Source of the DNA: Dendronephthya gigantea
Lineage: Eukaryota
Assembly (NCBI RefSeq): GCF_004324835.1
Contig: NW_021163311.1
Location: 10,208 to 74,207 of the forward strand
Reading direction: 5' to 3'
DNA: 64,000 bases
The notes under the pieces were generated by a model. It was not told the DNA's origin, made no database searches, and saw only the letters and a list, made by a program, of their open reading frames with translations. The position numbers were made by a program, and so were the translations under genes. Of the stretch, positions 5,293 through 39,971 are shown one piece after another (within the stretch, counting starts at the first letter, position 1; the number at the start of each line of letters is the position of its first letter).

Positions 5293-5739
5293 ATTGTATT
5301 TTAGGTCTAATAGGTGGATAACTTACAGCTGTTTTTCCCTGACAGTTTGTATTGGATTCACATTGTCCCTGCATTCGGCCTTTGATCAATACATCGTCCC
5401 AACCATTTGGACCCTTGCAAGAAACCATAAATATTGTGTAAACAAGATGTTTGTTGGCATTCAAAAGCTTTCACAGGAAGCTTGTAAACAAGTTGTAACA
5501 ATGTCAACATTTTATAAAGTCTAAATATAAATCTGCTGCAGATTTTTTACAAGTTGTTTATAAGGAAACAGTAAATACCTGTGATAGAACAAAGCTTCCT
5601 TCCTTGCAATTTGAACATCGACATCGCAATTTTCCTTGTGTTAGTTTCTTGCAAGTTTTACAATAAACAAAGAAGAAACTTTGCTTGCCTGAGATGAAAG
5701 AGTACAAAAAGTTTGGATTATTAAAGGAGCCCTGGTGTT

Positions 5740-13389: not shown

Positions 13390-13900
13390 GACGGGAGTCA
13401 ATGACCAAATTCATTACTCATTCTTTTTCGAGAAATGCATTATAGTTTAAAATTTAGTGTAGCCGAATTCATATTAGAGGCGGGAAACTCGTCTTACAAG
13501 GTCAAGGAAAACAGGAAACTCGTCTTACAGGGGAAACTCCTCTTGGAAACTCATCTTAAACGGGAAACTCGTCTGATGTGAATCAGGCCACAGACGGGTT
13601 TCTCGTCAGAATTTTCCCGCCTGACTTTCCCGTCTAAACAAACGGTTAATTTGAACGGGAATCCCTTCTGGACGAGAAACTTGTATTAAATTCGCATTTA
13701 GACGGATAAATCAGACGAGTTTCTGAAATATCAACACGGTCAAGGATCGAACAAGGGTAAAGCCCGCCGCACAAGAGAGCTATCAGCTGCACTAACGACC
13801 TCGAGGCGAATTCCTCACGAAAAACTATCCGCACACGAGAGTAACTTGCTGAGCTAACAGCCTCGCTTTACCTCAGCTACCAGCTCTCGTGTGAGGCGCG
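13390..13900. repeat. Cluster of short direct and inverted GAAACTCGTCT-type repeats plus a ~52-bp tandem (aactatccgcacacga..) with hairpins; resembles transposon subterminal repeats
   Basis: The reads are ggaaactcgtcttaca, ggaaactcgtcttacag, gaaactcctcttgg, gaaactcatcttaaacgg, gaaactcgtctgatg, and inverted cagacgggtttctcgtcag and cagacgagtttctg. Hairpins are ctgagctaac..gttaactcag. The copy number of the 52-bp unit varies between spacers (1-3). Confidence 0.6.
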
Positions 13901-14177
13901 CTTAACTTAGAAAATAAACAAAACTATTATCGTAATAATCACGATACCCTTTTTAGCATTACCCGACCCATCACACGTGTAAATTTTATATCCATTTCAA
14001 GTCATATTAAGACGAGTTTTTACAATCAACTTTCCTGTCTAAGATGAATTTTTCGTGCCTAATATGAATTTGGTTATTAATGTGAGAGAGATGATACCTT
14101 CGGCTTCTCCGCTTCCTTGAATATACAATCCATTGTTATATGGTTTGTTGTTGTTTGAATAAGAACGTGATTTTCGT

Positions 14178-14605
14178 CAGATCTTCGCAGCAAATGGTGT
14201 CAAGACAGAATTCCCTGGTTTGCAAATTATGTCGACGCCATTGTGTGTACGAGAACCTCTGTATAATGATAAATTCACGTTAATTTAATTGTTTTGTAAG
14301 ATTATAAGAATATTATCGATTCGCTGTCTTGCTACAAGCTTACATCTGGTCTTACCTTGGTGTTCCGAAATCACCACAACCCTGACTGTCACATTCACGG
14401 ATTAAATTTCTACCATTTGAGCTGCAAAGCTGACCAAGTTTAAAACATTCAACCGTATTATCTAGAAAAATAAATACAGAAAAATACGATGAAGAATAAC
14501 GAAGTGATACTTGAGAATTCTACGAACAAAGATATATATCACAATATGTATTCCAGTACCTTCAAAGACTAGGAATATAACAACGATCTTAACAACTCCA
14601 AAAAT
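14178..14605 (-). pseudogene. Small secreted Cys-rich 3-exon gene E, inactivated copy (start codon lost)
   Basis: Exons 2 (14356-14461) and 3 (~14178-14259) are conserved. The exon-1 ATG is mutated (aaagatttttggag versus aaagatgtttggag in the other copies). Confidence 0.45.
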
Positions 14606-14904
14606 CTTTGATCTGCTAAAATTTAATCTTCTAGCTTGAAATGGCTTTTCATCGATATAATGACCGCACTTATACAGGATGTTTAAAAAAACACAACACT
14701 TAATATTTATGAATATTTTGATACGCTATACGATCTTTTGTGATCAAAACGAAAGTGAATTTCATAAACACTTTGAAGTGGCGTTTTTCTTATTCACCAC
14801 AGCTGTAGATCAATCCACAAGATATCCTGAACCATTTGTGTGTTGATGAAAACTCATTTAGATTGGAATATTATTGCACCGCGAAAATATTCAACTCGAC
14901 TTAG

Positions 14905-15040
14905 ACAAAGTAAAATACTAAAGTAGGTCACATCTGGGTGCATTGCAAGCTAATGGGTTAACAAGAGACACTGACAGATAGTTTTGTTAACTTATTAACT
15001 GACAGTACTCTTCCACTGATGAGTAAAATCATCTGACACG
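14905..15040. repeat. 136-bp satellite monomer abutting the gene-4 promoter
   Basis: ..gacagatagttttgttaacttattaactgacagtactcttccactgatgagtaaaatcatctgacacgattaggaaaa joined directly to tacaaactatttcttgg. Confidence 0.7.
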
Positions 15041-15304
15041 ATTAGGAAAATACAAACTATTTCTTGGTATAAAGTATCTTTTTCTTCGAACTTATTTCCA
15101 TATAATGAAATAAGAAATTCCTTCCAACATAAACACAACCAATTGCAAGTCAGCATTTGAATAGAAGATGCTGAGCTTTTGTCAGGAGACAATAATAATA
15201 ATATAATTTTTTTATATCACGAATTCCTGTCCACAAAACACTCCTTAAACACTTACGGAAGAGATATTTCTCTGCTGTTCTAAACAGATAATTTTGCCGT
15301 AACG

Positions 15305-15443
15305 ATTTGAGAAAATACAAACACAGACTTCTTCAAGAACGAACACTGTATGTATATTCAGTCTATACAGCGAGGTTTATACTACAGAGCGACAAACAAC
15401 ACAGAACTTGCTTTATTATTACGACATAAGAACGACGTGAAAT
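15305..15443 (+). promoter_or_regulatory. Conserved leader of gene 4, type-B upstream
   Basis: Same proximal ~135 bp. The upstream region is type B (cacgaattcctgtccacaaaacactccttaaacacttacggaagagatatttctctgctg..) and the type-A segment is missing. Confidence 0.5.
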
Positions 15444-17074
15444 ATGGCTTCATATATACAAGGCTACGATGAAGAACGCTTCGAGACCAAAGTCAGTAAA
15501 AATTTCCTTTGTCAGATTTGCTTCAACGTCTTGAAAGAGCCTGTCCTGTGTCCGACAAACCAACATTGTTTTTGCCGTTGTTGTATTACGAAACATCTGG
15601 AAAATTCTCAAACATGTCCAACGTGTGCTGATGAACTGACCGTAGAGACTTTGGGCGAACCCCAAAGAATTGTAAAAGATCTTATAAACGAGTTAAAAAT
15701 TCGTTGCGTTTACATCGACAGAGGTTGTCAAGAGTTGTGGAATTACAGCATCTTGACCGCCATGAAGATACATGTGGATACACACCAGCCGTTTGTACAA
15801 ACCAAGGCTGTGGTTTAATTGTCAACAAGCGTGATCTTATTCACCATGAAAGTGAAGTCTGTGAATTCCGAAAGTTGAAGTGTCACTCGTGCGGAGAAAT
15901 GACGAAAACTTTGGCAGATATGGAGGAAAAAATGGCGAAGAATAATGTAAATATTGAAACTAAAATAACAAATTTAGAGAAAAACGTTGCTACTTTTGCG
16001 AATGATATGGAGAAAAACACCGCAGATATAAAAGCAGATATAAAAGCAGATATGGAAGGAAAACTCGAAGCGGTTAACAACGAAGTCAAAGGATTGAAAA
16101 CAGCTTTGGTCAAAGCTTTTGATGAAATGAAGGACGTTCTTATCACGATGGAGGGCAAGAAAGAAGAAAACACAAGAAAAGTAAGAAATAGACCAAGTGG
16201 TGATAAGGAAAATATAATTGTTGCTGGAGATGTAGCAACTAACTCTGTAGAGATATTTAACTGGCGCCAAAGAACATGGTCGCCATTACAATCAATGCCA
16301 GAGGATCGTTATGGAGCAACTTCATTTACTTATAACAATCATATGACTATAGCTGGGGGTGGCTGTGGTTGGCCTGGCATTGTTGATGATATAATTAGAA
16401 TGAATATTGACCCAAACCCTGATCTCTCAACACACTGGAGTGACTGTCCTGTTAAACTACCTGATAAGTTGAGATACCACAGCAGTGTGCTGTATAATGA
16501 TGAGTTGATACTCTCTGGAGGTGATAATGGAAATGTTTCATCTGACTTGATCAGATCAGTCCAGCTTGTTCCTCCCTATACTGTGAAGACCTTATCAAGA
16601 ATGCCAGAACCGAGACAAGGTCACAGCATGGAAATATTTGATGATAATTTGTTGACAGTTGGTGGAAGTAAAACTGACAGTTACACAGACAACCTCAGCA
16701 GTGTCGTACTGTACGATATAAAGAAGAATGAGCTAAAACAGTTGTCACCACTGCCGTATGAAGTGAGTGCTATGGCAACTGTGAGATGGGGAGACAACCT
16801 TGTTGTTATTGGTGGCGTTGACAAACATGGCAAGACATTAGATACAGTTATCATTTACAATGTCAAGACAAAACAAAGTCACATGCTGCCATCAATGAGA
16901 TGTAAGAGGAGAGGATGCACTGCAGTTGTTATTGAAAACAACATTGTAGTCCTGGGAGGATCTGGTGCAGGAGAACTGAAGTCAGTTGAAGGTTTCAACT
17001 TTGAAAGGTATTCTTGGGAAAAACTTCCAGAAATGTCTAAAGCAAGATGGCGGCACACTGCTGTTGTTGTGTGA
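15444..17074 (+). pseudogene. RING-TRAF-Kelch copy 4, disrupted by a 1-nt deletion (true pseudogene or homopolymer assembly error)
   Basis: caagagttgtggaattacagc here against caagaggttgtggaattacagc in gene 5. The ORF splits into 15444-15818 and 15704-17074. The 5' flank and N-terminal half are otherwise identical to gene 5. Confidence 0.6.
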
Positions 17075-17339
17075 ACAATATGTAAGGTATTAAGTGAAAA
17101 CTCCTAACATATTATGAACAATTGAAATGAACTATAAGATTTTCACAAAGTTATAGAAATAGATTGCAGCATTCTAAGTTGATTGTCAGACATATACTGA
17201 TTTGTATTTTTGTGTTTGAATTTAAATTGTGTCAGTTCTTAGGATTATATATTAAAGAACAATAACAAATCTTTGAAATAGATTTTTTTATTGAGGAAGG
17301 TTTATAATGAAACACAAAATAAAAAATTTGAAATAAGCT

Positions 17340-17470
17340 TTTCTGCACCCCCTCCACCTAGGTTTTTTCACTCCCTCCCTCCCACAGGTTTTTTCACCCC
17401 CCCCAACTAGGTTTTTCAACCACCCAACCTCACCCCTTTCTACCTGGGTTCTTCTTCCCCGGGCCCCCAG
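17340..17470. repeat. C-rich 3'-flank tandem repeat
   Basis: ccctccacctaggttttttcac units. Confidence 0.6.
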
Positions 17471-17707
17471 ACCAAGAATCCTAACTGAGCCTCTGGCTCA
17501 AGAAATAGCTCAGTTACCTATTTTAAATATCAGCCTGTCTGTAAATGATGTTTGTGTCTGTCAGACTGCCACAGACCAAGTCATATTTTAAAATTTAACA
17601 ATTAACAAGATTTGAAGAGATAGTTTTACTCTTTATTAAAACAAAACCATGATTAACTAATATAAATTGGTTTGTCAAATAAAATAAAATTCTTGTTTCA
17701 AGTTTGC

Positions 17708-17968
17708 TCACAGATTGTTTTGTAATTTCACGTTTTCCATGGCATCCTTGAAGGCTTTTAGTACAAGATTTACATTATCTTTTGTACTGTTCAACCCCAT
17801 CAGACCAACACGCCATATCTGAAAAATTTCACCACAAAAAGTAGGTTTTTCAAGGGAAAAAATTTACGATTATGGAGTGAATATCTGCGAATATGAGAAG
17901 AAAATTGTGAATATGATACCTTTCCAGCAGATTTCCAAGACCACCTGAAATATCCATTTTATATCTGA
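17708..17968 (-). pseudogene. AGXT: AGXT exon 9-10 derived fragment, copy C (frameshift in the exon-9-like part)
   Basis: cagcagatttccaagacc against cagcagatcttccaagacc in the real exon 9. The exon-10-like part is intact. Confidence 0.55.
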
Positions 17969-18004
17969 AAAAGAAATTGATTATTCAATTTTAACACTCT
18001 CTAT

Positions 18005-18170
18005 GAATGACCCCCTGCAAGTAAAAATGCCACTATTGGCAGGGGGTACTTCCCAAGATTTATCACTTAGAAAGTACGTAAATGGAGATACCCCCCTGCC
18101 CATATTAAAAATAACTGTTCGAGGGGGGTGATTGCCTCCATTTACCGTACTTCCTGAGTGACGTGAACCA
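18005..18170. repeat. Palindromic foldback module (copy)
   Basis: cacttagaaagtacgtaaatggag .. ctccatttaccgtacttcctgagtg. Confidence 0.7.
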
Positions 18171-18329
18171 CTTATGCAAAAAACTATGGAGTTGTTCTTC
18201 TGATAGGTATTCTGTGCCTACACTTTCTTTTATTTTTATTGTATTTTTATCTTTACTTGAAAGCACGACATGAAATTACCATTTAGACCTAACCCGGGGG
18301 GTGACGGGAGTCAATGACCAAATTCATTA

Positions 18330-18870
18330 CTCATTTTGTTTCGAGAAATGCATTATAGTTTAAAATTTAGTTTAGCCGAATTCATATTAGAGGCGGGAAA
18401 CTCGTCTTACAAGGTCAAGGAAAACAGGAAACTCGTCTTACAGGGGAAACTCCTCTTGGAAACTCATCTTAGACGGGAAACTCGTCTGATGTGAATCAGG
18501 CCACAGACGGGTTTCTCGTCAGAATTTTCCCGCCTAACTTTCCCGTCTAAACAAACGGTTAATTCCTTCTGGACGAGAATCTCGTCTTAAATTCACATTT
18601 AGACGGATAAATCAGACGAGTTTCTGAAATATCAACACGGTCAAGGACGGAACAAGGGTAAAGCCCGCCGCACAAGAGAGCTATCAGCTGAGCTAACGAT
18701 CTCGCGAGGCAGTTAACTCAGCCTGAAAACTATCCGCACACGATAGAAACTTGCCTCTCGAGGCGAATTCCTCACGAAAAACTATCCGCACACGAGAGTA
18801 ACTTGCTGAGCTAACAGCCTCGCGAGGTCTTTAACTCAGCTAGCAGCTCTCGTGTGAGGCGGGTTTATTT
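18330..18870. repeat. GAAACTCGTCT short-repeat cluster plus 52-bp tandem (3 copies here)
   Basis: Same module as 13390-13900, with two extra aactatccgcacacga units. Confidence 0.6.
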
Positions 18871-19138
18871 GAGAAAATAAACAAATTTTTATCGTAACAA
18901 TCACGATACCCTTTTTAACATTACCCGACCCATCACACGTGTAAATTTTATATCCATTCCAACTCATATTAAGACGGGTTTTTCACAATCAACTTTCTGT
19001 CTAAGATGAATTTGCCGTGCCTAATATGAATTTGGTTATTAATGCGAGAGAGATGATACCCTCATCTTCTTCGCTTCCTTGAATATACAATCCATTGTTA
19101 TATGGTTTGTTGTTTTTTGAATAAGGACGTGATTTTCG

Positions 19139-19568
19139 TCAGATCTTCGAAGCAAATGGTGTCATGACAGAACTCCCTGGTTTGCAAATTATGTCGACAC
19201 CATTGTCTGTACGAGAGCCTCTGTATAATGATAAATTCACGTTAATTTACTTGTTTTTGTAAGATTATAAGAATATTATCGATTCGTTGTGTTGCTACAA
19301 GGTTACATCTGGTCTTACCTTGGTGTTCCGAAATCACCACAACCCTGACTGTCACATTCACGGATTAAATTTCTACCATTTGAGCTGCAAAGCTGACCAA
19401 GTTTAAAACATTCAACCGCATTATCTAGAAAAATAAATCCAGAAAAATACGATGAAGAATAACGAAGTGATACTTGAGAATTCTATGAACAAAGATATAT
19501 ATCACAATATGTATTCCAGTACCTGCAAAGACTAGGAATATAACAACGATCTTAACAACTCCAAACAT
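19139..19568 (-). CDS. Gene E: small secreted Cys-rich protein (~77 aa), 3 exons
   Basis: Exons 19523-19568, 19319-19424 and 19139-19221. MFGVVKIVVIFLVFA(G) signal ends at |GTACTG. A 98-nt intron ends ttctag. Then DNAVECFKLGQLCSSNGRNLIRECDSQGCGDFGTPR|GTAAGA. A 97-nt intron ends tacag, followed by RGSRTDNGVDIICKPGSSVMTPFASKI*. Confidence 0.5.
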
Positions 19569-19867
19569 CTTTGATCTGCTAAAATTTAATCTTCTAGCTT
19601 GAAATGGCTTTTCATCGATATAATGACCGCACTTATACAGGATGTTTAAAAAAACACAACACTTAATATTTATGAATATTTTGATACGCTATACGATCTT
19701 TTGTGATCAAAACGAAAGTGAATTTCACGAACACTTTGAAGTTGCGTTTTTCTTATTCACCACAGCTGTAGATCAATCCACAAGATATCCTGAAACATTT
19801 GTGTGTTGATGAAAACTCATTTAGATTGGAATATTATTGCACCGCGAAAATATTCAACTTGACTTAG

Positions 19868-20003
19868 ACAAAGTAAAATACTAAAGTAGGTCACATCTGG
19901 GTGCATTGCAAGCTAATGGGTTAACAAGAGACACTGACAGATAGTTTTGTTAACTTATTAACTGACAGTACTCTTCCACTGATGAGTAAAATCATCTGAC
20001 ACG
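19868..20003. repeat. 136-bp satellite monomer upstream of gene 5
   Basis: As at 14905-15040. Confidence 0.7.
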
Positions 20004-20266
20004 ATTAGGAAAATACAAACTATTTCTTGGTATAAAGTATCTTTTTCTTCGAACTTATTTCCATATAATGAAATAAGAAATTCCTTCCAACATAAACACA
20101 ACCAATTGCAAGTCAGCATTTGAATAGAAGATGCTGAGCTTTTGTCAGGAGACAATAATAATAATATAATTTTTTTATATCACGAATTCCTGTCCACAAA
20201 ACACTCCTTAAACACTTACGGAAGAGATATTTCTCTGCTGTTCTAAACAGATAATTTTGCCGTAAC

Positions 20267-20405
20267 GATTTGAGAAAATACAAACACAGACTTCTTCAAG
20301 AACGAACACTGTATGTATTTCAGTCTATACAGCGAGGTTTATACTACAGAGCGACAAACAACACAGAACTTGCTTTATTATTCCGACATAAGAACGACGT
20401 GAAAT
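20267..20405 (+). promoter_or_regulatory. Conserved leader of gene 5 (type B)
   Basis: Identical to the gene-4 upstream. Confidence 0.5.
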
Positions 20406-22040
20406 ATGGCTTCATATATACAAGGCTACGATGAAGAACGCTTCGAGACCAAAGTCAGTAAAAATTTCCTTTGTCAGATTTGCTTCAACGTCTTGAAAGA
20501 GCCTGTCCTGTGTCCGACAAACCAACATTGTTTTTGCCGTTGTTGTATTACGAAACATCTGGAAAATTCTCAAACATGTCCAACGTGTGCTGATGAACTG
20601 ACCGTAGAGACTTTGGGCGAACCCCAAAGAATTGTAAAAGATCTTATAAACGAGTTAAAAATTCGTTGCGTTTACATCGACAGAGGTTGTCAAGAGGTTG
20701 TGGAATTACAGCATCTTGACCGCCATGAAGATACATGTGGATACACACCAGCCGTTTGTACAAACCAAGGCTGTGGTTTAATTGTCAACAAGCGTGATCT
20801 TATTCACCATGAAAGTGAAGTCTGTGAATTCCGAAAGTTGAAGTGTCACTCGTGCGGAGAAATGACGAAAACTTTGGCAGATATGGAGGAAAAAATGGCG
20901 AAGAATAATGTAAATATTGAAACTAAAATAACAAATTTAGAGAAAAACGTTGCTACTTTTGCGAATGATATGGAGAAAAACACCGCAGATATAAAAGCAG
21001 ATATAAAAGCAGATATGGAAGGAAAACTCGAAGCGGTTAACAACGAAGTCAAAGGATTGAAAACAGCTTTGGTCAAAGCTTTTGATGAAATGAAGGACGT
21101 TCTTATCACGATGGAGGGCAAGAAAGAAGAAAACACAAGAAAAGTAAGAAATAGACCAAGTGGTGATAAGGAAAATATAATTGTTGCTGGAGATGTAGCA
21201 ACTAACTCTGTAGAGATATTTAACTGGCGCCAAAGAACATGGTCGCCATTACAATCAATGCCAGAGGATCGTTATGGAGCAACTTCATTTACTTATAACA
21301 ATCATATGACTATAGCTGGGGGTTGGTGTGGTGTGTCTGTCATTGCTGATGATATGATTAGAATGAATATTGACCCAAACCCTGATCTCTCAACACACTG
21401 GAGTGACTGTCCTGTTAAACTACCTGATAAATTAATATTCCACAGCAGTGTGCTGTATAATGATCAGTTGATAGTCTCTGGAGGTGATAATGGAAATGGT
21501 TTATCTGACTTGATCAGATCAGTCCAGCTTGTTCCTCCCTATACTGTGAAGACCTTAACAAGAATGCCAGAACCAAGACAAGGTCACAGCATGGAAATAT
21601 TTGATGATAATTTGGTGATAGTTGGTGGAAGTACAATTAGCAGTTACAAAGGCAACCTCAGCAGTGTCGTACTGTACGATATAAAGAAGAATGAGCTGAG
21701 ACAGTTGTCACCACTGCCGTATGAGGTGAGTCTCATGGCAACTGTGAGATGGGGAGACAACATTGTTGTTATTGGTGGCTTTGACAAATATGGCAAATTA
21801 CTAGATACAGTTATCATTTACAATGTCAAGACAGGACAAAGTCACATGCTGCCATCAATGAGATGTAAGAGGAGGGGATGTACTGCAGTTGTTATTGAAA
21901 ACAACATTGTAGTCCTGGGAGGGGAGAGTGAGCAAGCAATGCTAACATCAGTTGAAGGTTTCAACTTTGAAAGGTATTCTTGGGAAGAACTTCCAGAAAT
22001 GTCTGAAGCAAGATTGTGGCACACTGCTGTTGTTGTGTGA
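20406..22040 (+). CDS. RING-TRAF-Kelch protein, copy 5 (544 aa)
   Basis: Intact ORF. Codons 1 to ~300 are identical to copy 4. The Kelch half has diverged. Confidence 0.9.
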   Translation: MASYIQGYDEERFETKVSKNFLCQICFNVLKEPVLCPTNQHCFCRCCITKHLENSQTCPTCADELTVETLGEPQRIVKDLINELKIRCVYIDRGCQEVVELQHLDRHEDTCGYTPAVCTNQGCGLIVNKRDLIHHESEVCEFRKLKCHSCGEMTKTLADMEEKMAKNNVNIETKITNLEKNVATFANDMEKNTADIKADIKADMEGKLEAVNNEVKGLKTALVKAFDEMKDVLITMEGKKEENTRKVRNRPSGDKENIIVAGDVATNSVEIFNWRQRTWSPLQSMPEDRYGATSFTYNNHMTIAGGWCGVSVIADDMIRMNIDPNPDLSTHWSDCPVKLPDKLIFHSSVLYNDQLIVSGGDNGNGLSDLIRSVQLVPPYTVKTLTRMPEPRQGHSMEIFDDNLVIVGGSTISSYKGNLSSVVLYDIKKNELRQLSPLPYEVSLMATVRWGDNIVVIGGFDKYGKLLDTVIIYNVKTGQSHMLPSMRCKRRGCTAVVIENNIVVLGGESEQAMLTSVEGFNFERYSWEELPEMSEARLWHTAVVV

Positions 22041-22234
22041 ACAATATGTGAGGCATTAAGCACTTGAAAACTCCTAACATATTATGAACAATTGAAATGA
22101 ATTATAAGATTTCCACAAAGTTATAGAAATAGATTGTACCATTCTAAGTTGATTGTCAGACATATACTGATTTGTATTTTTGTGATTTAATTTAAATTGA
22201 GTCAGATCTTGGAATTATATATTAAAGAACAATA

Positions 22235-22430
22235 ACAAAACAGACCAACACGCCATATCTGAAAAATTTCACGACAAAAAGTACAGTTTTTCACAGGGAA
22301 AAAATTTACGATTATGGAGCGAATATCTGCGAATATGGAGAAGAAAATTGTGAATATGGATACCTTTCCAGCAGATCTTCCAAGACCACCTGAAATATCC
22401 ATTTTATATCTGAAAAAAAATTTGATTATT
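22235..22430 (-). pseudogene. AGXT: AGXT-derived fragment, copy D (exon 9 retained, exon 10 mostly deleted)
   Basis: ..aacaataacaaa|acagaccaacacgccatatctgaaaaatttcac.. The 3' UTR of gene 5 is joined inside the exon-10-like segment. The exon-9-like part reads MDISGGLGRSAGK. Confidence 0.5.
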
Positions 22431-22464
22431 CAATTTTAACACTCTCCCTCTTTATTGGACCTGT

Positions 22465-22665
22465 ATGAATCACCCCCCTGCAAGTATTAAAAATGAGGCT
22501 GTTGGCAGGGGGGTAGTCCTTCCCACGATTCATCACTCAGCAAGTACCGTTAATTGAAGCAATCACCCCCCCTGCTTATATTGGAAATGGGGCTTTTGGC
22601 AGGGAGGTAATTACTTCCATTTACAGTACTTGCTGAGTGACGGAACCACTTATGCAAAAAACTAT
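22465..22665. repeat. Palindromic foldback module (copy)
   Basis: The inverted arms ..agcaagtaccgttaattgaag.. and ..ttccatttacagtacttgctgagtgacgg flank ggcaggg. Confidence 0.7.
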
Positions 22666-22779
22666 GGAGTTGTTCTTCTGATAGGTATTCTGTGCCTACA
22701 CTTTCTTTTATTTTTATTGTATTTTTATCTTTACTTGAAAGCACGACATGAAATTACCATTTAGATCTAACCGGGGGGT

Positions 22780-23320
22780 GAAGGAAGTACAATCATCAAA
22801 TTGATTACTAATGGTAGTTTATATACAATTAAATTGACTTTTGCAAAATACAATGACATTTTCGTGCAAATAAAACCAAATACGGTAGAAATAACTACAA
22901 AACCATGGTCCATTTTACCAATACAACAACTATTATTACAAATAGTCTTTTGGAATTACGATTAAACCATTCTTATAAAGTTGTAAATGCAAATGCTGTG
23001 TTATTCCTGAGTAAGGAATTTCCTACGATTTTCCTAACACTGAACCTTCATCAGCGAAGCCTGAAGACTTCGAAGGCGTGAAATAAAATATCTTTGCACT
23101 AAAACCTATAAAAAATGAATGAAGTTAATTACTCTAGTGCAATACACGGGTCTACGAGGTTGTTCTCAAGTCATGCAACGATGAACCTTCCATATTTCAT
23201 TTTAATATTTATGGCTTTATTGTTGAAGATAATGAAAGCGAAAGAGAGAAATTGTTTACAAGTGAAATAGTCAGATTGTCTTTTAAATTGCCGTGGAAAA
23301 CTGATTTTGTTTCGAGAAAT
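22780..23320. other. Copy-specific ~530-bp insertion or replacement unique to spacer 5-6
   Basis: Other spacers read ccatttagacctaacccggggggtgacgggagtcaatgaccaaattcattactcatt..gtttcgagaaatgc. Here ~530 unrelated bp intervene. No clear TIR is visible. Confidence 0.4.
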
Positions 23321-23830
23321 ACATTATAGTTTAAAATTTACTTTAGCCGAATTCATATTAGAGGCGGGAAACTCGTCTTACAAGGTCAAGAAAAACAGGA
23401 AACTCGTTTCACAGGGGAAACTCCTCTTGGAAACTCATCTTAGACGGGAAACTCGTCTGATGTGAATCAGGCTACAGACGGGTTTCTCGTCAGAATTTTT
23501 CCGCCTAACTTTCCCGTCTAAACAAACGGTTAATTTGAACGGGAATCCCTTCTGGACGAGAAACTCGTCTTAAATTCGCATTTAGACGAATAAATCAGAC
23601 GAGTTTCTGAAATATCAACACGGTCAAAGACGGAACAAGGGTAAAGCCCGCCGCACAAGAGAGCTATCAGCTGAAAACTATCCGCACACGATAGAAACTT
23701 GCCTCTCGAGGCGAATTCCTCACGAAAAACTATCCGCACACGAGAGTAACTTGCTGAGCTAACAGCCTCGCGAGGTCTTTACCTCAGCTACCAGCTCTCG
23801 TGTGAGGCGCGCTTAACTGAGAAAATAAAC
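23320..23830. repeat. GAAACTCGTCT short-repeat cluster plus 52-bp tandem (2 copies)
   Basis: Same module as 13390-13900. Confidence 0.6.
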
Positions 23831-24087
23831 AAAATTATTATCGTAATAATCACAACACCCTTTTTAGCATTACCCGACCCATCACACGTGTAAATTTCAT
23901 ATCCATTCCAAGTCATATTAAGACGGGTTTTTACAATCAACTTTCCTGTCTAAGATGAATTTCCCGTGCCTAATATGAATTTGGTTATTAATGTGAGAGA
24001 GATGATACCTTCGGCTTCTCCGCTTCCTTGAATATACAATCCATTGTTATATGGTTTGTTGTTGTTTGAATAAGAACGTGATTTTCG

Positions 24088-24515
24088 TCAAATCTTCGCA
24101 GCAAATGGTGTCATGACAGAAATCCCTGGTTTGCAAATTATGTCGACACCATTGTGTGTACGAGAGCCTCTGTATAATGATAAATTCACGTTAATTTAAT
24201 TGTTTTGTAAGATTATAAGAATATTATCGATTCGCTGTGTTGCTACAAGGTTACATCTGGTCTTACCTTGGTGTTCTGAAATCACCACAACCCTGACTGT
24301 CACATTCACGGATTGAATTTCTACCATTTGAGCTGCAAAGCTGACCAAGTTTAAAACATTCAACCGCATTATCTAGAAAAATAAATCCAGAAAAATACGA
24401 TGAAAATAACGAAGTGATACTTGAGAATTCTATGAACAAAGATATATATCACAATATGTATTCCAGTACCTGCAAAGACTAGGAATATAACAATGATCTT
24501 AACAACTCCAAACAT
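24088..24515 (-). CDS. Gene E copy (small secreted Cys-rich protein, 3 exons)
   Basis: Exons 24470-24515, 24267-24372 and 24088-24169. ATG, GT-AG boundaries and frame are conserved with 19139-19568. Confidence 0.5.
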
Positions 24516-24829
24516 CTTTGATTTGCTAAAATTTAATCTTCTAGCTTGAAATGGCTTTTCATCGATATAATGACCGCACTTATACAGGATGTTTAAAAAA
24601 ACGCAACACTTAATATTTATGAATATTTTGATACGCTATACGATCTTTTGTGATCAAAACGAAAGTTAATTTCATAAACACTTTGAAGTTGCGTTTTTCT
24701 TATTCACCACAGCTGTAGATCAATCCACAAGATATCCTAAACCATTTGTGTGTTGATGAAAACTGATTTAGATTGGAATATTATTCCACCGCGAAAATAT
24801 TCAACTTGACTTAGACAGAGTAAAATACT

Positions 24830-25375
24830 AAAGTAGGTCACATCTGTGTGCATTGCAAGCTAATGGGTTAACAAGAGACACTGACAGATAGTTTTGTTAA
24901 CTTATTAACTGACAGTACTCTTCCACTGATGAGTAAAATCATCTGACATTAGACAGAGTAAAATACTAAAGTAGGTCACAACTGGGTGCATTGCAAGCTA
25001 ATGGGTTAACAAGAGACACTGACAGATAGTTTTGTTAACTTATTATCTGACAGTACTCTTCCACTGATGAGTAAAATCATCTGACATTAGACAGAGTAAA
25101 ATACTAAAGTAGGTCACATCTGGGTGCATTGCAAGCTAATGGGTTAACAAGAGACATTGACAGATAGTTTTGTTAACTTATTAACTGACAGTACTCTTCC
25201 ACTGATGAGTAAATTCATCTGACATTAGACAGAGTAAAATACTAAAGTAGGCCACATCTGGGTGCATTGCAAGCTAATGGGTTAACAAGAGACACTGACA
25301 GATAGTTTTGTTAACTTATTAACTGACAGTACTCTTCCACTGATGAGTAAAATCATCTGACACGATTAGGAAAAA
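24830..25375. repeat. 136-bp satellite, 4 tandem monomers, upstream of gene 6
   Basis: Unit is gacagatagttttgttaacttattaactgacagtactcttccactgatgagtaaaatcatctgacattagacagagtaaaatactaaagtaggtcacatctgggtgcattgcaagctaatgggttaacaagagacact. Confidence 0.85.
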
Positions 25376-25608
25376 TCTAGGTTCATAATGCTGGACCATG
25401 CAGTTTGACTCATTCACTTTGCATACATAGCTCAGTGCGTTATACTCCAGTCCCAGTTCTCTCTCTCAGCTTTCGACATTTTTTAATTTATTTGTCGAAA
25501 CACCGCAGCAAATTCCAAGAATTCCTGACAGCAAATGATGCATTTTATACAAACACTTTAGGAAGAAGAGATATTTGTCTTCATAAACTGATCATTTTGG
25601 AGAAGATT

Positions 25609-25745
25609 TCGAGAAAATACAAACACAGACTTCTTCAAGAACGAACACTGTATCTATATTCAGTTTATACAGCGAGGTTTATACTACAGAGCGACAAACA
25701 ACACAGAACTTGCTTTATTATTACGACACAAGAACGACGTGAAAT
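25609..25745 (+). promoter_or_regulatory. Conserved leader of gene 6 (type-A upstream)
   Basis: Type-A upstream ctctctctcagc..gaaacaccgcagcaaattccaagaattcctgac..cttcataaactgatcattttggagaagatttcgag precedes the conserved leader. Confidence 0.5.
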
Positions 25746-27380
25746 ATGGCTTCATATATACAAGGCTACGATGAAGAACGCTTCGAGGCCAAAGTCAGTA
25801 AAAATTTCCTTTGTCAGATTTGCTTCAATGTCTTGAAAGAGCCTGTCCTGTGTCGGAAGAACCAACATTGTTTTTGCCGTTGTTGTATTACGAAACATAT
25901 GGAAAATTCTCAAACATGTCCAACGTGTGCTGATGAACTGACCGTAGAGACTTTGACAGAACCAAATAGAATGGTAAAAGATCTTATAAATGAGTTAAAA
26001 ATTCGTTGCGTTTACATCGACAGAGGTTGTCAAGAAGTTGTAGAATTACAGCATCTTGACCGCCATGAAGATACATGTGGATATACACCAGCCGTTTGTA
26101 CAAACCAAGGCTGTGGTTTAATTGTCAACAAGCGTGATCTTATTCGCCATGAAAGTGAAGTCTGTGAATTCCGAAAGTTGAAGTGTCACTCGTGCCGAAA
26201 AATGACGAAAACTTTCGCAGATATCGAGGAAAGAATGGCGAATATCGAGAAGAATATGGTAACAAATAAAACAGTTGACACTAAAATAAAAAATTTAGAG
26301 AAAAATGTTGCCACTGTTGCGAATAATATCGAGAAAAACACGGCAGATATAAAAGCAAATATGGAAGGAAAACACGAAGCGGTTAACAACGAAGTCAGAG
26401 GATTGAAAACAGCTTTGGTCAGAGCTTTTGATGAAATTAAGGACGTTCTTATCACGATGGAGGGCAAGAAAGAAGAAAACACAAGAAAAGTAATAAATAG
26501 ACCAAGTGGTGATAAGGAAAATATAATTGTTGCTGGAGGTGTAGTAACTAACTCTGTAGAGATGTTTAACTGGCGTCAAAGAACATGGTCGCCATTACAA
26601 TCAATGCCAGATCATCGTTGTGGAGCGACTTCATTTATTTACAACAATCATATGACTATAGCTGGGGGTGACCGTGGTAGGCCTGACATTGTTATGACTA
26701 GAATGAATATTGACCCATACCCTGATCTCTCAACACACTGGAGCGACTGTCCTGCTAAACTACCTGAAAAGTTGAGATACCACAGCAGTGTGCTGTATAA
26801 TGATCAGTTGATAGTCTCTGGATGTGCTAATGCAAATTATTCACGTGACTTGATCAAAGCAGTCCAGCTTGTTCCTCCCTATACTGTGAAGACCTTATCA
26901 AGAATGCCAGAACCAAGACAATGTCACAGCATGGAAATATTTGATGATAATTTGTTGATAGTTGGTGGAAGAGCAACTGGGTTTTACAAAGACAACCTCA
27001 GCAGTGTCGTACTGTACGATATAAAGAAGAATGAGCTGAAACAGTTGTCACCACTGCCGTATGAAGTGAGTCAAATGGTAACTGTGAGATGGGGAGACAA
27101 CATTGTTGTTATTGGTGGCCTTGACAAACATTGCAAGTTATTAGATACAGTTATCATTTACAATGTCAAGACAGAACAAAGTCACATGCTGCCATCAATG
27201 AGATGTAAGAGGCAGGGATGTACTGCAGTTGTTATTAAAAACAACATTGTAGTCCTGGGAGGGTGGGGTGAGGAAGGAAAGCTGAAGTCAGTTGAAGGTT
27301 TCAACTTTGAAAGGTATTCTTGGGAAGAACTTCCAGAAATGTCTGAAGTGAGATGGCTGTCCACTGCTGTTGTTGTGTGA
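25746..27380 (+). CDS. RING-TRAF-Kelch protein, copy 6 (544 aa)
   Basis: Intact ORF with the same domains and distinctive loop variants (DRGRPDIVMT, CANANYSRD, RATGFYKDN). Confidence 0.9.
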   Translation: MASYIQGYDEERFEAKVSKNFLCQICFNVLKEPVLCRKNQHCFCRCCITKHMENSQTCPTCADELTVETLTEPNRMVKDLINELKIRCVYIDRGCQEVVELQHLDRHEDTCGYTPAVCTNQGCGLIVNKRDLIRHESEVCEFRKLKCHSCRKMTKTFADIEERMANIEKNMVTNKTVDTKIKNLEKNVATVANNIEKNTADIKANMEGKHEAVNNEVRGLKTALVRAFDEIKDVLITMEGKKEENTRKVINRPSGDKENIIVAGGVVTNSVEMFNWRQRTWSPLQSMPDHRCGATSFIYNNHMTIAGGDRGRPDIVMTRMNIDPYPDLSTHWSDCPAKLPEKLRYHSSVLYNDQLIVSGCANANYSRDLIKAVQLVPPYTVKTLSRMPEPRQCHSMEIFDDNLLIVGGRATGFYKDNLSSVVLYDIKKNELKQLSPLPYEVSQMVTVRWGDNIVVIGGLDKHCKLLDTVIIYNVKTEQSHMLPSMRCKRQGCTAVVIKNNIVVLGGWGEEGKLKSVEGFNFERYSWEELPEMSEVRWLSTAVVV

Positions 27381-27681
27381 ACAATATGTAAAGTATTAAG
27401 TGAAAACTCCTAACATATTATGAACAATTGAAATGAACTATAAGAATTTCACAAAGTTATAGAAATAGATTGTAGCATTCTAAGTTGATTGTCAGACATA
27501 TACTGATTTGTATTTTTGTGATTGAATTTAAATTAAGTCAGTTCTTAGAACAATAACAAATCTTTGAAATAGATTTTTTCATTGAGGAAGGTTTTAAATG
27601 AAACATGAAATAAAAAATTTGAAATAAGCTTTTCTGCACCCCCTCCACCTAGGTTTTTTCAGCCACAATCCAACCCCTCCC

Positions 27682-27915
27682 CAGGGGTTAGCTTAAACGC
27701 TGGATAAGCTAAAGTTTAAAATTCCTCTCATACATCTTGTGAATGACTAAATCTGCATCTTGTGCATTAAATATGTACTTCCATTGACAATTAAACTATT
27801 TACATTGACTGATTGACATATTTCAGCTCAGTTGTTCAATAAATATATAGTTTCGTTTTCCATTTTGAACTTGTCCACCGTTTAAGCTAAACGCCTTTCG
27901 AACAACCGGCCCCTG
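27682..27915. mobile_element. MITE-like element (~234 bp) with terminal inverted repeats caggggTTAGCTTAAACGsTGGA / TCCACCGTTTAAGCTAAACG..ccggcccctg
   Basis: Left end is caggggttagcttaaacgctggataag. Right end is cttgtccaccgtttaagctaaacgcctttcgaacaaccggcccctg. It sits where other spacers carry the AGXT-derived fragment. A second, solo terminus lies at 61858-61923. Confidence 0.6.
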
Positions 27916-27954
27916 AAAAAGAAATTGATTATTCAATTTTAACACTGTCCCTCT

Positions 27955-28150
27955 TTACTGGACCTCTATAAATCACCCCCCTGCAAGTATTAAAAATGGG
28001 GCTGTTGGCAGGGGAGGGCTTATCCCCAAGATTCATCCCTCAGCAAGTACGGTAAATAGAACGAATCACCCCCCTGCCCATATTAAAAATGGCGCTGTTG
28101 GCAGAGGGGTGATTACCTCCATTTACAGTACTTGCTTAGTGAATGAACCA
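27955..28150. repeat. Palindromic foldback module (copy)
   Basis: cagcaagtacggtaaatagaacgaatcacccccctgcc .. ggcagaggggtgattacctccatttacagtacttgcttagtga. Confidence 0.7.
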
Positions 28151-28295
28151 CTTACGCAAAAAACAATGGAGTTGTTCTTCTGATAGGTATTCTGTGCCTA
28201 CACTTTCTTTTATTTTTATTGTATTTTTATCTTTACTTGAAACCACGACATGAAATTACCATTTAGACCTAACCCGGGAAGTGACGGGAGTCAAT

Positions 28296-28444
28296 AGTGA
28301 GCTTAAGCAAGTGACGTTTTTGACAACACGTACGTTAACCGGAAGTAAAGTTTTTGTTTTTCACCAATCACAATCCTTGACCCAGTCTTTTCACGTCACT
28401 CATGCCGTTTGTGTTGTCAAAAACGTCACATGCTTAAGCTCACT
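28296..28444. mobile_element. 149-bp MITE with 33-bp TIRs and a 3-bp target-site duplication (AAT); Tourist/PIF-Harbinger-like
   Basis: TIRs are agtgagcttaagcaagtgacgtttttgacaacac .. gtgttgtcaaaaacgtcacatgcttaagctcact. Empty sites in the other spacers read gagtcAATgaccaaat. Here the read is gagtcAAT[element]AATgaccaaat. Confidence 0.7.
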
Positions 28445-28464
28445 AATGACCAAATCATTACTCA

Positions 28465-28990
28465 TTCTGTTTCGAGAAATTCATTATAGTTTAAAATTTA
28501 GTTCAGCCGAATTCATATTAGAGGCGGGAAACTCGTCTTACAAGGTCAAGGAAAACAGGAAACTCGTCTTACAAGGGAAACTCCTCTTAGAAACTCATCT
28601 TAGACGGGAAACTCGTCTGATGTGAATCAGGCCACAGACGGGTTTCTCGTCAGAACTTTCCCGCCTAACTTTCCCGTCTCAACAAACAGTTAATTTGAAC
28701 GGGAACCCTTCTGGACGAGAAACTCGTCTTAAATTCACATTTGGCAGGATAAATCAGACGAGTTTCTGAAATATCAACACGGTCAAGGACGGAACAAGGG
28801 TAAAGCCCGCCGCACAAGAGAGCTATCAGCTGAGCTAACGACCTCGCGAGGCAGTTAACTCAGCCTGAAAACTATCCGCACACGATAGAAACTTGCCTCT
28901 CGAGGCGAATTCCTCACGAAAAACTATCCGCACACGAGAGTAACTTGCTGAGCTAACAGCCTCGCGAGGTCTTTACCTCAGCTACCAGCT
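28465..28990. repeat. GAAACTCGTCT short-repeat cluster plus 52-bp tandem (3 copies)
   Basis: Same module as 13390-13900. Confidence 0.6.
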
Positions 28991-29281
28991 CTCGTGTGAG
29001 GCGGGCTTAACTGAGAAAATAAACAAAATTATTATCGTAATAATCACGATACCCTTTTTAGCATTACCCGACCCATAAAACGTGTAAATTTTATATCCTT
29101 TCCAAGTCATATTAAGACGAGTTTTTGCAATCAACTTTCCTGTCTAAGATGAATTTCCCGTGTCTAATATGAATTTGGTTGTTAATGTGAGAGAGATGAT
29201 ACCTTCGGCTTCCCCGATTCCTTGAATATACAATCCATTGTTATATGGTTTGTTGTTGTTTGAATAAGAACGTGATTTTCG

Positions 29282-29710
29282 TCAGATCTTCGCAGCAAAT
29301 GGTGTCATGACAGAACTCCCTGGTTTGCAAATTATGTCGACACCATTGTGTGTACGAGAGCCTCTGTATAATGATAAATTCACGTTAATTTAATTGTTTT
29401 GTAAGATTATAAGAATATTATCGATTCGCTGTGTTGCTACAAGGTTACATCTGGTCTTACCTTGGTGTTCCGAAATCACCACAACCCTGACTGTCACATT
29501 CACGGATTGAATTTCTACCATTTGAGCTGCAAAGCTGACCAAGTTTAAAACATTCAACCGCATTATCTAGAAAAATAAATCCAGAAAAATACGATGAAGA
29601 ATAACGAAGTGATACTTGAGAATTCTATGAACAAAGATATATATCACAATATGTATTCCAGTACCTGCAAAGACTAGGAATATAACAACGATCTTAACAA
29701 CTCCAAACAT
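29282..29710 (-). CDS. Gene E copy (small secreted Cys-rich protein, 3 exons)
   Basis: Exons 29665-29710, 29461-29566 and 29282-29363. ATG is at 29710. Donor is GTACTG and the 98-nt intron ends ctag. Donor GTAAGA is followed by a 97-nt intron ending tacag. The TGA stop is at 29282-29284. Confidence 0.5.
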
Positions 29711-29999
29711 CTTTGATCTGCTAAAATTTAATCTTCTAGCTTGAAATGGCTTTTCATCGATATAATGACCGCACTTATACAGGATGTTTAAAAAAATGCA
29801 ACACTTAATATTCATGAATATTTTGATACGCTATACGATCTTTTGTGATCAAAACGAAAGTGAATTTCATAAACACTTTGAAGTTGCGTTTTTCTTATTC
29901 ACCACAGCTGTAGATCAATCCACAAGATATCCTGAACCATTTGTGTGTTGATGAAATCTCATTTACATTGGAATATTATTGCACCGCGAAAATATTCAA

Positions 30000-30135
30000 C
30001 TTGACTTAGACAGAGTAAAATACTAAAGTAGGTCACATCTGGGTGCATTGCAAGCTAATGGTTAACAAGAGACACTGACAGATAGTTTTGTTAACTTACT
30101 AACTGACAGTACTCTTCCACTGATAAGTAAAATCA
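30000..30135. repeat. 136-bp satellite monomer upstream of gene 7
   Basis: As at 14905-15040. Confidence 0.7.
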
Positions 30136-30229
30136 TCTGATACGATTAGGAAAAGTCTAGTTTCATGATGCTGGACAATGCAGTTTGACCCAATCACTTG
30201 GCATACATAGCTCAGTGCGTTATACTCCA

Positions 30230-30843
30230 GTCCCCGTTCTCTCTCTCAGCTCGCGATATTTTGAAATTTATTTGCGGAAACACCGCAGCAAATTCCAAGA
30301 ATTCCTGACAGCAAATGATGCATTTTATGCAAACACTTTATAAGCAAGAGATATTTGTCTTCATAAATTGATCATTTTGGAGAAGATTTCGAGAAAATAC
30401 AAACACTTCTTGGTAATATAAAATACAAACTATTTCTTGGTATAAAATACAAACTATTTCTTGGTATAAAGTATCATTTTCATCGAACTAATTTCCATAT
30501 AATGAAATAAGAAATTCCTACCAACATAAACACAACCAATTGCAATTCACTATTTCAATAGGAGATGCTGAGCTTTGTCAGGAGACAATAATAATAATAT
30601 AATTTTTTCATACCACAAATTCCTGTGCACAAAACACTCTTTAAACACTTCAGTACGGAAGAGATATTTCTCTGCGCTTCTAAACAGATAATTTTGCCGT
30701 AGCGATTTGAGAAAATACAAACACAGACTTGTCAAAGAACGAACACTGTATCTATATTCAGTCTATACAGCGACGTTTATACTACAGAGCGACAAACAAC
30801 ACAGAACTTGCTTTATTATTACGACACAAGAACGACGTGAAAT
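30230..30843 (+). promoter_or_regulatory. Composite upstream region of gene 7: type-A segment, then tandem aatacaaactatttcttggtataaa x2.5, then the full type-B segment, then the conserved leader
   Basis: The type-A portion ends ..gagaaaatacaaacac. Type B then follows and ends again with ..gagaaaatacaaacacagac. Confidence 0.5.
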
Positions 30844-32442
30844 ATGGCTTCATATATACAAGGCTACGATGAAGAAAGGTTTTTGGACAAAATCAATCAA
30901 AATTTCCTCTGTCAGATTTGCTTCAACGTCTTGAAAGAGCCGGTTATGTGTTCGAGAAACCAGCATTCTTTTTGCCGTTGTTGTATTACGAAACATCTGG
31001 AAAATTCCAAAACATGTCCAACGTGTGCTGATGAACTTACCGTAGAGACTTTGGCCGAACCACAAAGAATGATAAAAGATTATTTGAATGAATCGAAAAT
31101 TCGTTGCGTTTACATCGACAGAGGTTGTCAAGAAGTTGTAGAATTACAGCATCTTGACCGCCATGAAGATACATGTGGATATACACCAGCCGTTTGTACA
31201 AACCAAGGCTGTGGTTTAATTGTCAACAAGCGTGATCTTATTCATCATGAAAGTGAAGTCTGTGAATTCCGAAAGTTGAAGTGTCACTCGTGCGGAGAAA
31301 TAACCAAAACTTTGGCAGATATGGAGGAAAGAATGGCGAAGAATAACACAACAATTGAAACTAAAATAACAAATTTAGAGAAAAATATGGCGAGAAATAC
31401 CATAGTCGCAGATTTAAAAGCAGATATGGAAGGAAAACTCGAAGCGGTTAACAACAAAGTCGATGGATTGAAAACAGCATTGGTCAGAGCTTTTGATGAA
31501 ATGAAGGACGTTCTTATCACGATGGAGAGCAAGAAAGAAGAAAACACAAGAAAAGTAAGAAATAGACCAAGTGGTGATAAAGAAAATATAATTGTTGCTG
31601 GAGGTGTAGGAACTAACTCTGTAGAGATGTTTAACTGGCGTCAAAGAACATGGTCGCCATTACAATCAATGCCAAAGAGTCGTTATGGAGCGACTTCATT
31701 TATTCATAACAATCATATGACTATAGCTGGGGGTTGGTGTGTTGGGCCTGGCATTGTTGATGATATGATTAGAATGAATATTGACCCAAACCCTGATCTC
31801 TCAACACACTGGAGTGACTGTCCTGTTAAACTACCTGATAAGTTGAGCAGTGTGCTGTATAATGATCAGTTGATAGTCTCTGGAGGTAATAATGGAAATG
31901 ATTCATCTGACTTGATCAGAGCAGTCCAGCTTGTTCCTCCCTATACTGTGAAGACCTTATCAAGAATGCCAGAACCAAGACAAGGTCACAGCATGGAAAT
32001 ATTTGATGATAATTTGTTGATAGTTGGTGGAAGAACAACTGGTAATTACAAAGACAACCTCAGCAGTGTCGTATTGTACGATATAAAGAAGAATGAGCTG
32101 AAACAGTTGTCACCACTGCCCTATGAAGTGGGTGATATGGCAACTGTGAGATGGGGAGACAACATTGTTGTTATTGGTGGTGCTGACAAACGCGGCAAGC
32201 CATTAGATACAGTTATCATTTACAATGTCAAGACAGAACAAAGTCACATGCTGCCATCAATGAGATGTAAGAGGAGGGGATGTACTGCAGTTGTTATTGA
32301 AAACAACATTGTAGTCCTGGGAGGGAAGGGTGAGGGAAGAAAGCTGAAGTCAGTTGAAGGTTTCAACTTTGAAAGGTATTCTTGGGAAGAACTTCCAGAA
32401 ATGTCTGAAGCAAGATGGTGGCCCACTGCTGTTGTTGTGTGA
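30844..32442 (+). CDS. RING-TRAF-Kelch protein, copy 7 (532 aa)
   Basis: Intact ORF. It has a 3-aa in-frame deletion (DKL--SSVLYND) and distinct loop variants. Confidence 0.9.
   Translation: MASYIQGYDEERFLDKINQNFLCQICFNVLKEPVMCSRNQHSFCRCCITKHLENSKTCPTCADELTVETLAEPQRMIKDYLNESKIRCVYIDRGCQEVVELQHLDRHEDTCGYTPAVCTNQGCGLIVNKRDLIHHESEVCEFRKLKCHSCGEITKTLADMEERMAKNNTTIETKITNLEKNMARNTIVADLKADMEGKLEAVNNKVDGLKTALVRAFDEMKDVLITMESKKEENTRKVRNRPSGDKENIIVAGGVGTNSVEMFNWRQRTWSPLQSMPKSRYGATSFIHNNHMTIAGGWCVGPGIVDDMIRMNIDPNPDLSTHWSDCPVKLPDKLSSVLYNDQLIVSGGNNGNDSSDLIRAVQLVPPYTVKTLSRMPEPRQGHSMEIFDDNLLIVGGRTTGNYKDNLSSVVLYDIKKNELKQLSPLPYEVGDMATVRWGDNIVVIGGADKRGKPLDTVIIYNVKTEQSHMLPSMRCKRRGCTAVVIENNIVVLGGKGEGRKLKSVEGFNFERYSWEELPEMSEARWWPTAVVV

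Positions 32443-33038: not shown

Positions 33039-39971
<6,933 letters not shown>

Follow-up and report, generated by a model that had tools for sequence, protein, structure and literature searches.

Probable relics of a LECT2-like gene in the spacers of a RING-TRAF-Kelch gene array of Dendronephthya gigantea

Gene E and its exon structure

We analysed a stretch of 64,000 nt from the octocoral Dendronephthya gigantea (contig NW_021163311.1, positions 10,208 to 74,207; hereafter the window), in which a small minus-strand gene, here called gene E, lies in the spacers of a tandem array of RING-TRAF-Kelch genes. The initial annotation, made from the sequence alone, had described gene E as a three-exon gene for a secreted, cysteine-rich peptide embedded in each array spacer. 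A degenerate pattern search of the window with the exon 1 peptide gave exactly four minus-strand matches, starting at 14605, 19568, 24515 and 29710, against a chance expectation of 0. The three-exon model was recovered in all four copies with the translations as quoted, but they occupy only four of the six spacers (3-4, 4-5, 5-6 and 6-7); neither spacer 1-2 nor spacer 2-3 contains gene E, nor does the DNA that follows array copy 7. Its proposed co-amplification with the array was borne out, in that gene E is part of a ~5-kb repeated unit amplified with the RING-TRAF-Kelch genes. The four copies are as follows.

14098..14605, minus strand: copy A, spacer 3-4; exon 1 14560-14605, exon 2 14356-14461, exon 3 14098-14258, TGA 14177-14179; exon 4 deleted
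Exon 1 of copy A, minus strand: lesions of copy A; start ATG changed to ATT, A15E at the predicted signal cleavage site; deletion junction near 13416-13421
19060..19568, minus strand: copy B, spacer 4-5; exon 1 19523-19568, exon 2 19319-19424, exon 3 19060-19220, TGA 19139-19141; exon 4 deleted
Exon 3 of copy B, minus strand: lesions of copy B; zinc-ligand His changed to Asp (HNGVD to DNGVD, H56D); deletion junction near 18329-18334
22936..24515, minus strand: copy C, spacer 5-6, the sole four-exon copy; exon 1 24470-24515, exon 2 24267-24372, exon 3 24009-24169, TGA 24088-24090
Intron 3 23106-24008 and exon 4 22936-23105, minus strand: 3' part of copy C; second in-frame stop TAG 23023-23025, HLH zinc-ligand motif, end DYL and stop
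29203..29710, minus strand: copy D, spacer 6-7; exon 1 29665-29710, exon 2 29461-29566, exon 3 29203-29363, TGA 29282-29284; exon 4 deleted

In every copy, exon 1 is 46 nt and exon 2 is 106 nt long, and both introns measure 97-98 nt with GT donors and AG acceptors throughout, in agreement with the initial annotation. The exon peptides read MFGVVKIVVIFLVFA, then DNAVECFKLGQLCSSNGRN(L/S)IRECDSQGCGDFGTPR, then GSRT(H/D)NGVDIICKPG..FA(A/S)KI and the stop. The start codon of copy A is indeed lost (ATT at 14605); copies B, C and D keep both the ATG and the open reading frame (ORF). The exon 3 peptide had been given correctly up to its TGA, but the exon itself does not end there. The TGA, followed by C, is codon 78 in all four copies and leaves an ORF of 77 codons; beyond it the frame stays open for 26 more codons, up to a conserved AG/GTATCA donor 79 nt past the TGA in four of four copies, so that the biological exon 3 is 161 nt long. 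The R at the junction of exons 2 and 3 is a single split codon (AG/A), not two residues. In copy C, a fourth exon lies ~900 nt downstream of exon 3, behind a ttttttatag acceptor and in the correct phase, and encodes GFSAKIFYFTPSKSSGFADEGSVLGKS, a stop, EIPYSGITQHLHLQLYKNGLIVIPKDYL and a final stop.

Exon 1 encodes a hydrophobic stretch of 15 residues (MFGVVKIVVIFLVFA), with V in the -3 and A in the -1 position, that coincides in place with the N-terminus of the closest database protein (P0001, below) and is probably a signal peptide. The predicted mature peptide has 62 aa with 5 cysteines, an odd number.

Relationship to LECT2

LECT2 is a secreted, zinc-binding and disulfide-bonded protein with an M23 metallopeptidase fold; to our knowledge, vertebrate LECT2 has no peptidase activity. 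A homology search of the peptide had been suggested by the initial annotation, and it produced a significant LECT2 match but no stand-alone short peptide family. In a phmmer search against the PDB, the product of exons 1-3 matched human LECT2 (PDB 5B0H/9NON) with E=5e-16, in an alignment that crosses the TGA and continues for another 24 residues. The four-exon product of copy C matched with E=8e-22 over LECT2 residues 5-122, crossing both stops. The closest database protein was P0001, an intact 160-aa D. gigantea protein named "leukocyte cell-derived chemotaxin-2-like", to which the conceptual four-exon product aligned over 160 of 160 residues with 72% identity and no gaps. P0001 has Leu at codon 78, where gene E has TGA, and Gln at codon 132, where copy C has TAG. 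The homologous codon 78 in the gene of Paramuricea clavata is TTG (Leu), and the sizes of exon 2 (106 nt) and exon 3 (161 nt) and the intron phases are the same in that gene (locus L001, 10480-10585 and 11114-11274).

On this sequence evidence, gene E is essentially certain to be a LECT2-like derivative, and its ORF corresponds to codons 1-77 of a LECT2-like gene of the M23 fold that had 160 codons in four exons. The proposal of a secreted cysteine-rich peptide gene therefore stands as far as the parent family is secreted and disulfide-bonded, but the gene is not self-contained, its 77 codons being the first of the 160 of an interrupted LECT2-like gene. That the ORFs arose by chance, or from misassembly, in repeated spacer DNA has a negligible probability and is already refuted. 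The uniform 94% identity of the copies would make their conservation alone uninformative, but the LECT2 homology is highly significant and gap-free over four exons with conserved intron positions, the stop occurs in four independently diverged copies, and all of the annotated short siblings end in the same ...AAKI.

What is missing from gene E can be read against both relatives. The zinc ligands of LECT2 are H35, D39 and H120 (PMC8039541). The equivalents of H35 and D39 form HNGVD in exon 3, kept in three of four copies (DNGVD in copy B), and that of H120 lies in the HLH of exon 4, beyond the stop and in copy C only, so that no copy encodes a complete zinc site ahead of its stop. Nor does any copy have an uninterrupted ORF over the whole M23 domain (about 133 aa in the mature protein), the TGA being present in four of four and the TAG in the sole exon 4. 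Like vertebrate LECT2 (PDB 5B0H, 9NON), gene E keeps equivalents of H35, D39 and H120 and the cysteines of the N-terminal disulfides, but its product ends where LECT2 has residue 56 (of 133), so that H120, half of the beta-sheet core and the third disulfide are all lost. With P0001 it has in common the signal-peptide exon, the HxGVD and HLH motifs and the C-terminal DYL; the window copies differ in having TGA at Leu78, TAG at Gln132 and G for Cys at position 32, in the loss of exon 4 from three of four, and in their location, the intact gene being on another contig (1.05 Mb). Against the gathering threshold of Pfam Peptidase_M23 (PF01551), 28.7 bits, P0001 scored 35.5 bits, whereas the 77-aa ORF gave no match and the read-through of exons 1-3 (14.2 bits) and the four-exon product (21.4 bits) remained below it.

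Searches of the window with tblastn, using human, D. gigantea and P. clavata LECT2, turned up neither another LECT2 copy, intact or otherwise, nor any match in spacer 1-2. The Cys-rich sequence at 5330-5670 in that spacer, which the initial annotation had suggested might be a diverged relative, turned out to be a parkin-like RING0 exon pair and not a relative of LECT2. At the P. clavata LECT2-like locus only the LECT2 exons matched the window; its neighbours, CENP-N and TAFH/NHR2/zf-MYND, were not found there. We found no relevant literature on LECT2 in cnidarians or on octocoral TRAF/Kelch arrays.

Gene E is already represented in RefSeq. The 77-aa product of copy D is identical in 77 of 77 residues to XP_028417478.1, annotated as "leukocyte cell-derived chemotaxin-2-like" on a 133,106-bp contig (exact-sequence look-up), so that for this copy the annotation is the same, with no difference. 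Its 77-aa siblings XP_028417476, XP_028417477 and XP_028417479 come from the 133,106-bp contig and XP_028415283 from a 375,850-bp contig. The siblings differ from XP_028417478.1 by 1-2 residues, among them radical changes such as G66E, N32Y, P72Q and G48R, and all of the short models (77 or 79 aa) end in ...AAKI. The products of copies B and C are absent from the protein collection, and copy A has no ATG. An exhaustive phmmer search with the 77-aa ORF over 1.84 billion representatives found a single close short match, the D. gigantea model XP_028417475.1 (79 aa, 97% identity, same terminal residue), and no independent homologs of similar shortness in other taxa. The remaining matches were mostly LECT2/M23-like proteins of about 100-330 aa, with a few weak short ones of 64-95 aa. 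No match to MENTESSVWNLDSGAVK, which is the alternative first exon of XP_028417475, occurred in the window. Overall, the D. gigantea genome, whose GC content of 37% (PMC6447388) agrees with that of the window, holds at least eight truncated copies of gene E and an intact 160-aa paralog. The 77-aa LECT2-like models of RefSeq carry no truncation flag; the family name is correct, and what the present analysis adds is that these entries are truncated relics.

The same protein cluster holds models named "E3 ubiquitin-protein ligase parkin-like", with a Ubl domain and a RING0-type zinc finger. RefSeq models the LECT2-like loci with alternative isoforms and as chimeras with an upstream parkin-like gene: P0287 is an in-frame parkin-like::LECT2-like fusion, and P0285 splices into LECT2 exon 2 out of frame. 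These two models suggest chimeric or read-through transcription across scrambled units.

Lesions, variation and selection

Two features bear on the loss of exon 4.

22812..23300, minus strand: exon 4 segment with flanks, ~470-490 nt, in copy C only; the other three copies have one shared junction between two AGT microhomologies
28296..28459, no strand assigned: insertion of ~165 nt resembling a miniature inverted-repeat transposable element (MITE), with ~34-nt terminal inverted repeats (AGTGAGCTTAAGCATGTGACGTTTTTGACAACAC...); at the exon-4 deletion junction and private to copy D

Because copies A, B and D have one junction in common, exon 4 was apparently lost in one deletion event, which subsequent duplication spread, and the presence of the TGA in all four copies shows that the nonsense mutation is older than the amplification. 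The distribution of these lesions over the copies gives the order of events: nonsense mutation, unit duplication, exon 4 deletion, further duplication and private lesions. The ancestor was a full four-exon, 160-codon LECT2-like gene standing head-to-head with a RING-TRAF-Kelch E3-ligase gene. Codon 78 changed from Leu to TGA before tandem duplication of the ~5-kb unit; a single ~470-nt deletion then took exon 4, and the deleted unit multiplied further. Private damage followed, namely M1I and A15E in copy A, H56D in copy B, the exon 4 TAG of copy C and the MITE insertion of copy D.

The TGA raises the question of a full-length LECT2-like protein, whose synthesis would need this codon to be read through or recoded, for instance as selenocysteine, and exon 4 to be spliced on. 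The frame is kept after the TGA, the exon 3 donor is conserved in four of four copies, and the C directly after the TGA makes a relatively leaky stop context. However, three of the four copies have lost exon 4 and the fourth has a second stop (TAG) within it, which comes close to excluding such a product, and the homologous codon is Leu in both D. gigantea and P. clavata, not Cys or selenocysteine. We consider this possibility highly improbable. Selenocysteine at the TGA was itself rejected, the homologous codon being Leu and exon 4 missing. Removal of the TGA by splicing was likewise rejected, since the interval from the conserved core to the TGA contains no GT and a cryptic donor further upstream would delete the zinc motif.

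The four copies lie within a ~1.65 kb block that is 94-95% identical between the four array spacers. Variable columns made up 21 of the 313 exonic positions (6.7%) and 72 of the 997 non-coding ones (7.2%; Fisher p=0.80); since the exons are no better conserved than the introns and flanks, the conservation of gene E reflects recent tandem duplication and not selection. In the 77-codon ORF, 11 nonsynonymous and 3 synonymous differences among the copies compare with a neutral expectation of 10.9 to 3.1 (nonsynonymous-to-synonymous rate ratio, omega, ~1.06), and an omega of 0.3 or less was rejected (p=0.034). These comparisons appear to give no support to purifying selection on the copies since the duplication. 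Between the gene E consensus and the P. clavata gene, by contrast, dN/dS was 0.33 before the stop and 0.29 after it, and identity to P0001 was 72.6% before vs 75.6% after. The likeness of both measures on the two sides of the stop implies that the part behind it was equally under purifying selection for most of the history of the gene and that constraint was lost recently. Under neutral simulation with a per-copy divergence of 1.5-2.8%, the ATG, the four splice dinucleotides and the ORF were all intact in 61-77% of trials, so that three intact copies of four are uninformative.

Taken together, gene E is likely to be a young duplicated (non-processed) pseudogene, carried along by the E3-ligase array as a hitch-hiker and probably still being transcribed. 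All of the copies carry a disabling lesion relative to a functional homolog, and selection on them is relaxed (omega about 1, with exons evolving like introns). Since promoter, signal-peptide exon and splice sites are intact in three copies, these loci would probably be transcribed and spliced. The 77-aa product, which has neither the third zinc ligand nor the C-terminal half of the fold, most likely has no function, and we infer that the copy number results from amplification of the neighbouring E3-ligase gene, not from selection on the relic. Like other duplicated pseudogenes that hitch-hike, gene E has a shared lesion from before the amplification, later independent lesions, an omega of about 1 and its introns kept; unlike them, it has an intact promoter, signal exon and splice sites in most copies and is modelled as expressed, as a young relic.

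Several observations weigh against a decaying pseudogene. The ORF is intact in three of four copies, and a TATA-like box, TATAAG, is conserved in every copy 69 nt upstream of the ATG position. RefSeq lists at least six proteins of 77-79 aa for this genome, some of them alternative isoforms, which suggests transcript support. The omega estimate comes from 14 substitutions only and is also compatible with ~0.5 (p=0.19), and a mature peptide of 62 aa would in principle still allow both N-terminal LECT2 disulfides. An unlikely alternative that draws on the same observations is that truncation made a new functional gene, which encodes a secreted 62-aa N-terminal LECT2 fragment with two disulfides, shares its promoter region with the RING-TRAF-Kelch gene and was amplified to advantage. 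The signal-peptide-like exon 1 and the splice sites of three of the four window copies are intact together with their ORF, TATAAG at -69 is conserved, other parts of the genome hold at least four further annotated 77-aa siblings, and loss of exon 4 would put the TGA in the last exon and spare the mRNA from nonsense-mediated decay. However, omega in the ORF is near 1 and exon variability equals that of the non-coding DNA, the neutral simulation yields comparable numbers of intact copies anyway, one copy has no ATG and another no zinc-ligand His, siblings carry radical changes (G66E, N32Y, P72Q, G48R), the mature peptide has an odd number of cysteines, no independent family of short homologs occurs among the 1.84 billion representatives, and hitch-hiking accounts for the copy number. 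No sign of selection for such a peptide was seen in the sequence. In its extended form, where truncation and exon 4 loss gave rise to an amplified family of secreted 62-aa peptides whose expression is coupled through a bidirectional promoter to that of the massively expanded RING-TRAF-Kelch family, the proposal seems improbable. If true, it would be a case of octocoral gene birth by truncation beside an E3-ligase family that may act in immunity.

Under the pseudogene interpretation, the 77-aa "LECT2-like" proteins of D. gigantea in RefSeq ought to be left out of any count of functional LECT2 paralogs and not be taken for a new peptide family. The locus offers a datable case of passenger decay in a tandem array (nonsense, duplication, exon loss, duplication), and it illustrates that, when tandem copies are young, conserved splice sites and an intact ORF say nothing for function. 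Beyond annotation hygiene, its significance is slight.

The RING-TRAF-Kelch array and the rest of the window

The genes surrounding gene E are listed below.

29711..30843, no strand assigned: divergent head-to-head intergenic region from gene E copy D to the next RING-TRAF-Kelch gene
20406..22040, plus strand: example of a host array gene, an intronless 544 aa ORF with RING/U-box, Sina/TRAF zinc finger and Kelch propeller
2958-4598, 8546-10156, 20406-22040, 25746-27380 and 30844-32442, plus strand: intact RING-TRAF-Kelch copies
15444-17074 (copy 4, frameshift near 15730) and 11241-12065 (copy 3, truncated): damaged RING-TRAF-Kelch copies, plus strand
7438-7280, 6847-6749, 5692-5318 and 5146-5034, minus strand: parkin-like exons in spacer 1-2
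1846-1662 and 1249-1085, minus strand: parkin-like exons upstream of array copy 1

Across the four units, the ATG of gene E and that of the next array gene are 838-1231 nt apart. The intact RING-TRAF-Kelch ORFs are 532-546 aa long and free of introns, and the family has more than 1,590 relatives, mostly octocoral. None of the five intact ORFs was found in a collection of 15 billion proteins (0/5), where the best homolog was 76% identical, yet the small LECT2-like model of the window is a RefSeq protein; the D. gigantea RefSeq set seems to have no annotation for the five large ORFs. Among the intact copies, the proportion of synonymous differences (pS) was 0.08-0.12 and the ratio of the nonsynonymous proportion to it (pN/pS) was 0.53-0.99, indicating weak constraint or diversifying evolution in an expanded E3-ligase family. 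The parkin-like genes (7438-5034 and 1846-1085, minus strand) are truncated, with Ubl and a RING0-type zf-RING_12 and no RBR part, and lie in spacers without gene E.

A 138-nt satellite occurs in 4 copies at 24807-25362, upstream of gene E copy C, in ~20 copies at 36694-39509 and as ~1 unit in each of the other gene E spacers. Further satellites were seen at 34026-35089 (77-nt unit, x13.8), 35886-36439 (80 nt, x6.9) and 33361-33731 (114 nt, x3.3). The minus-strand ORF at 39633-39971, where the initial annotation had placed AGXT, looks, by eye only, like exon 1 of an alanine-glyoxylate aminotransferase gene. Another tandem array (period ~4.2 kb) spans 40999-62805 and contains four different small ORFs, each repeated 3-5 times, whose N-termini are signal-peptide-like (MKKSSFLAHGLTILVVLCCATEV..., MLLASLLNMFVLKLSLVFLWTVCCYGE..., MTHRMNFKILFSAVLIVITAASSCPPHN... 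and MELIMAVVGRKCCLKLIILLLILKVTVSS...). These ORFs look more like candidate genes for secreted proteins than gene E does.

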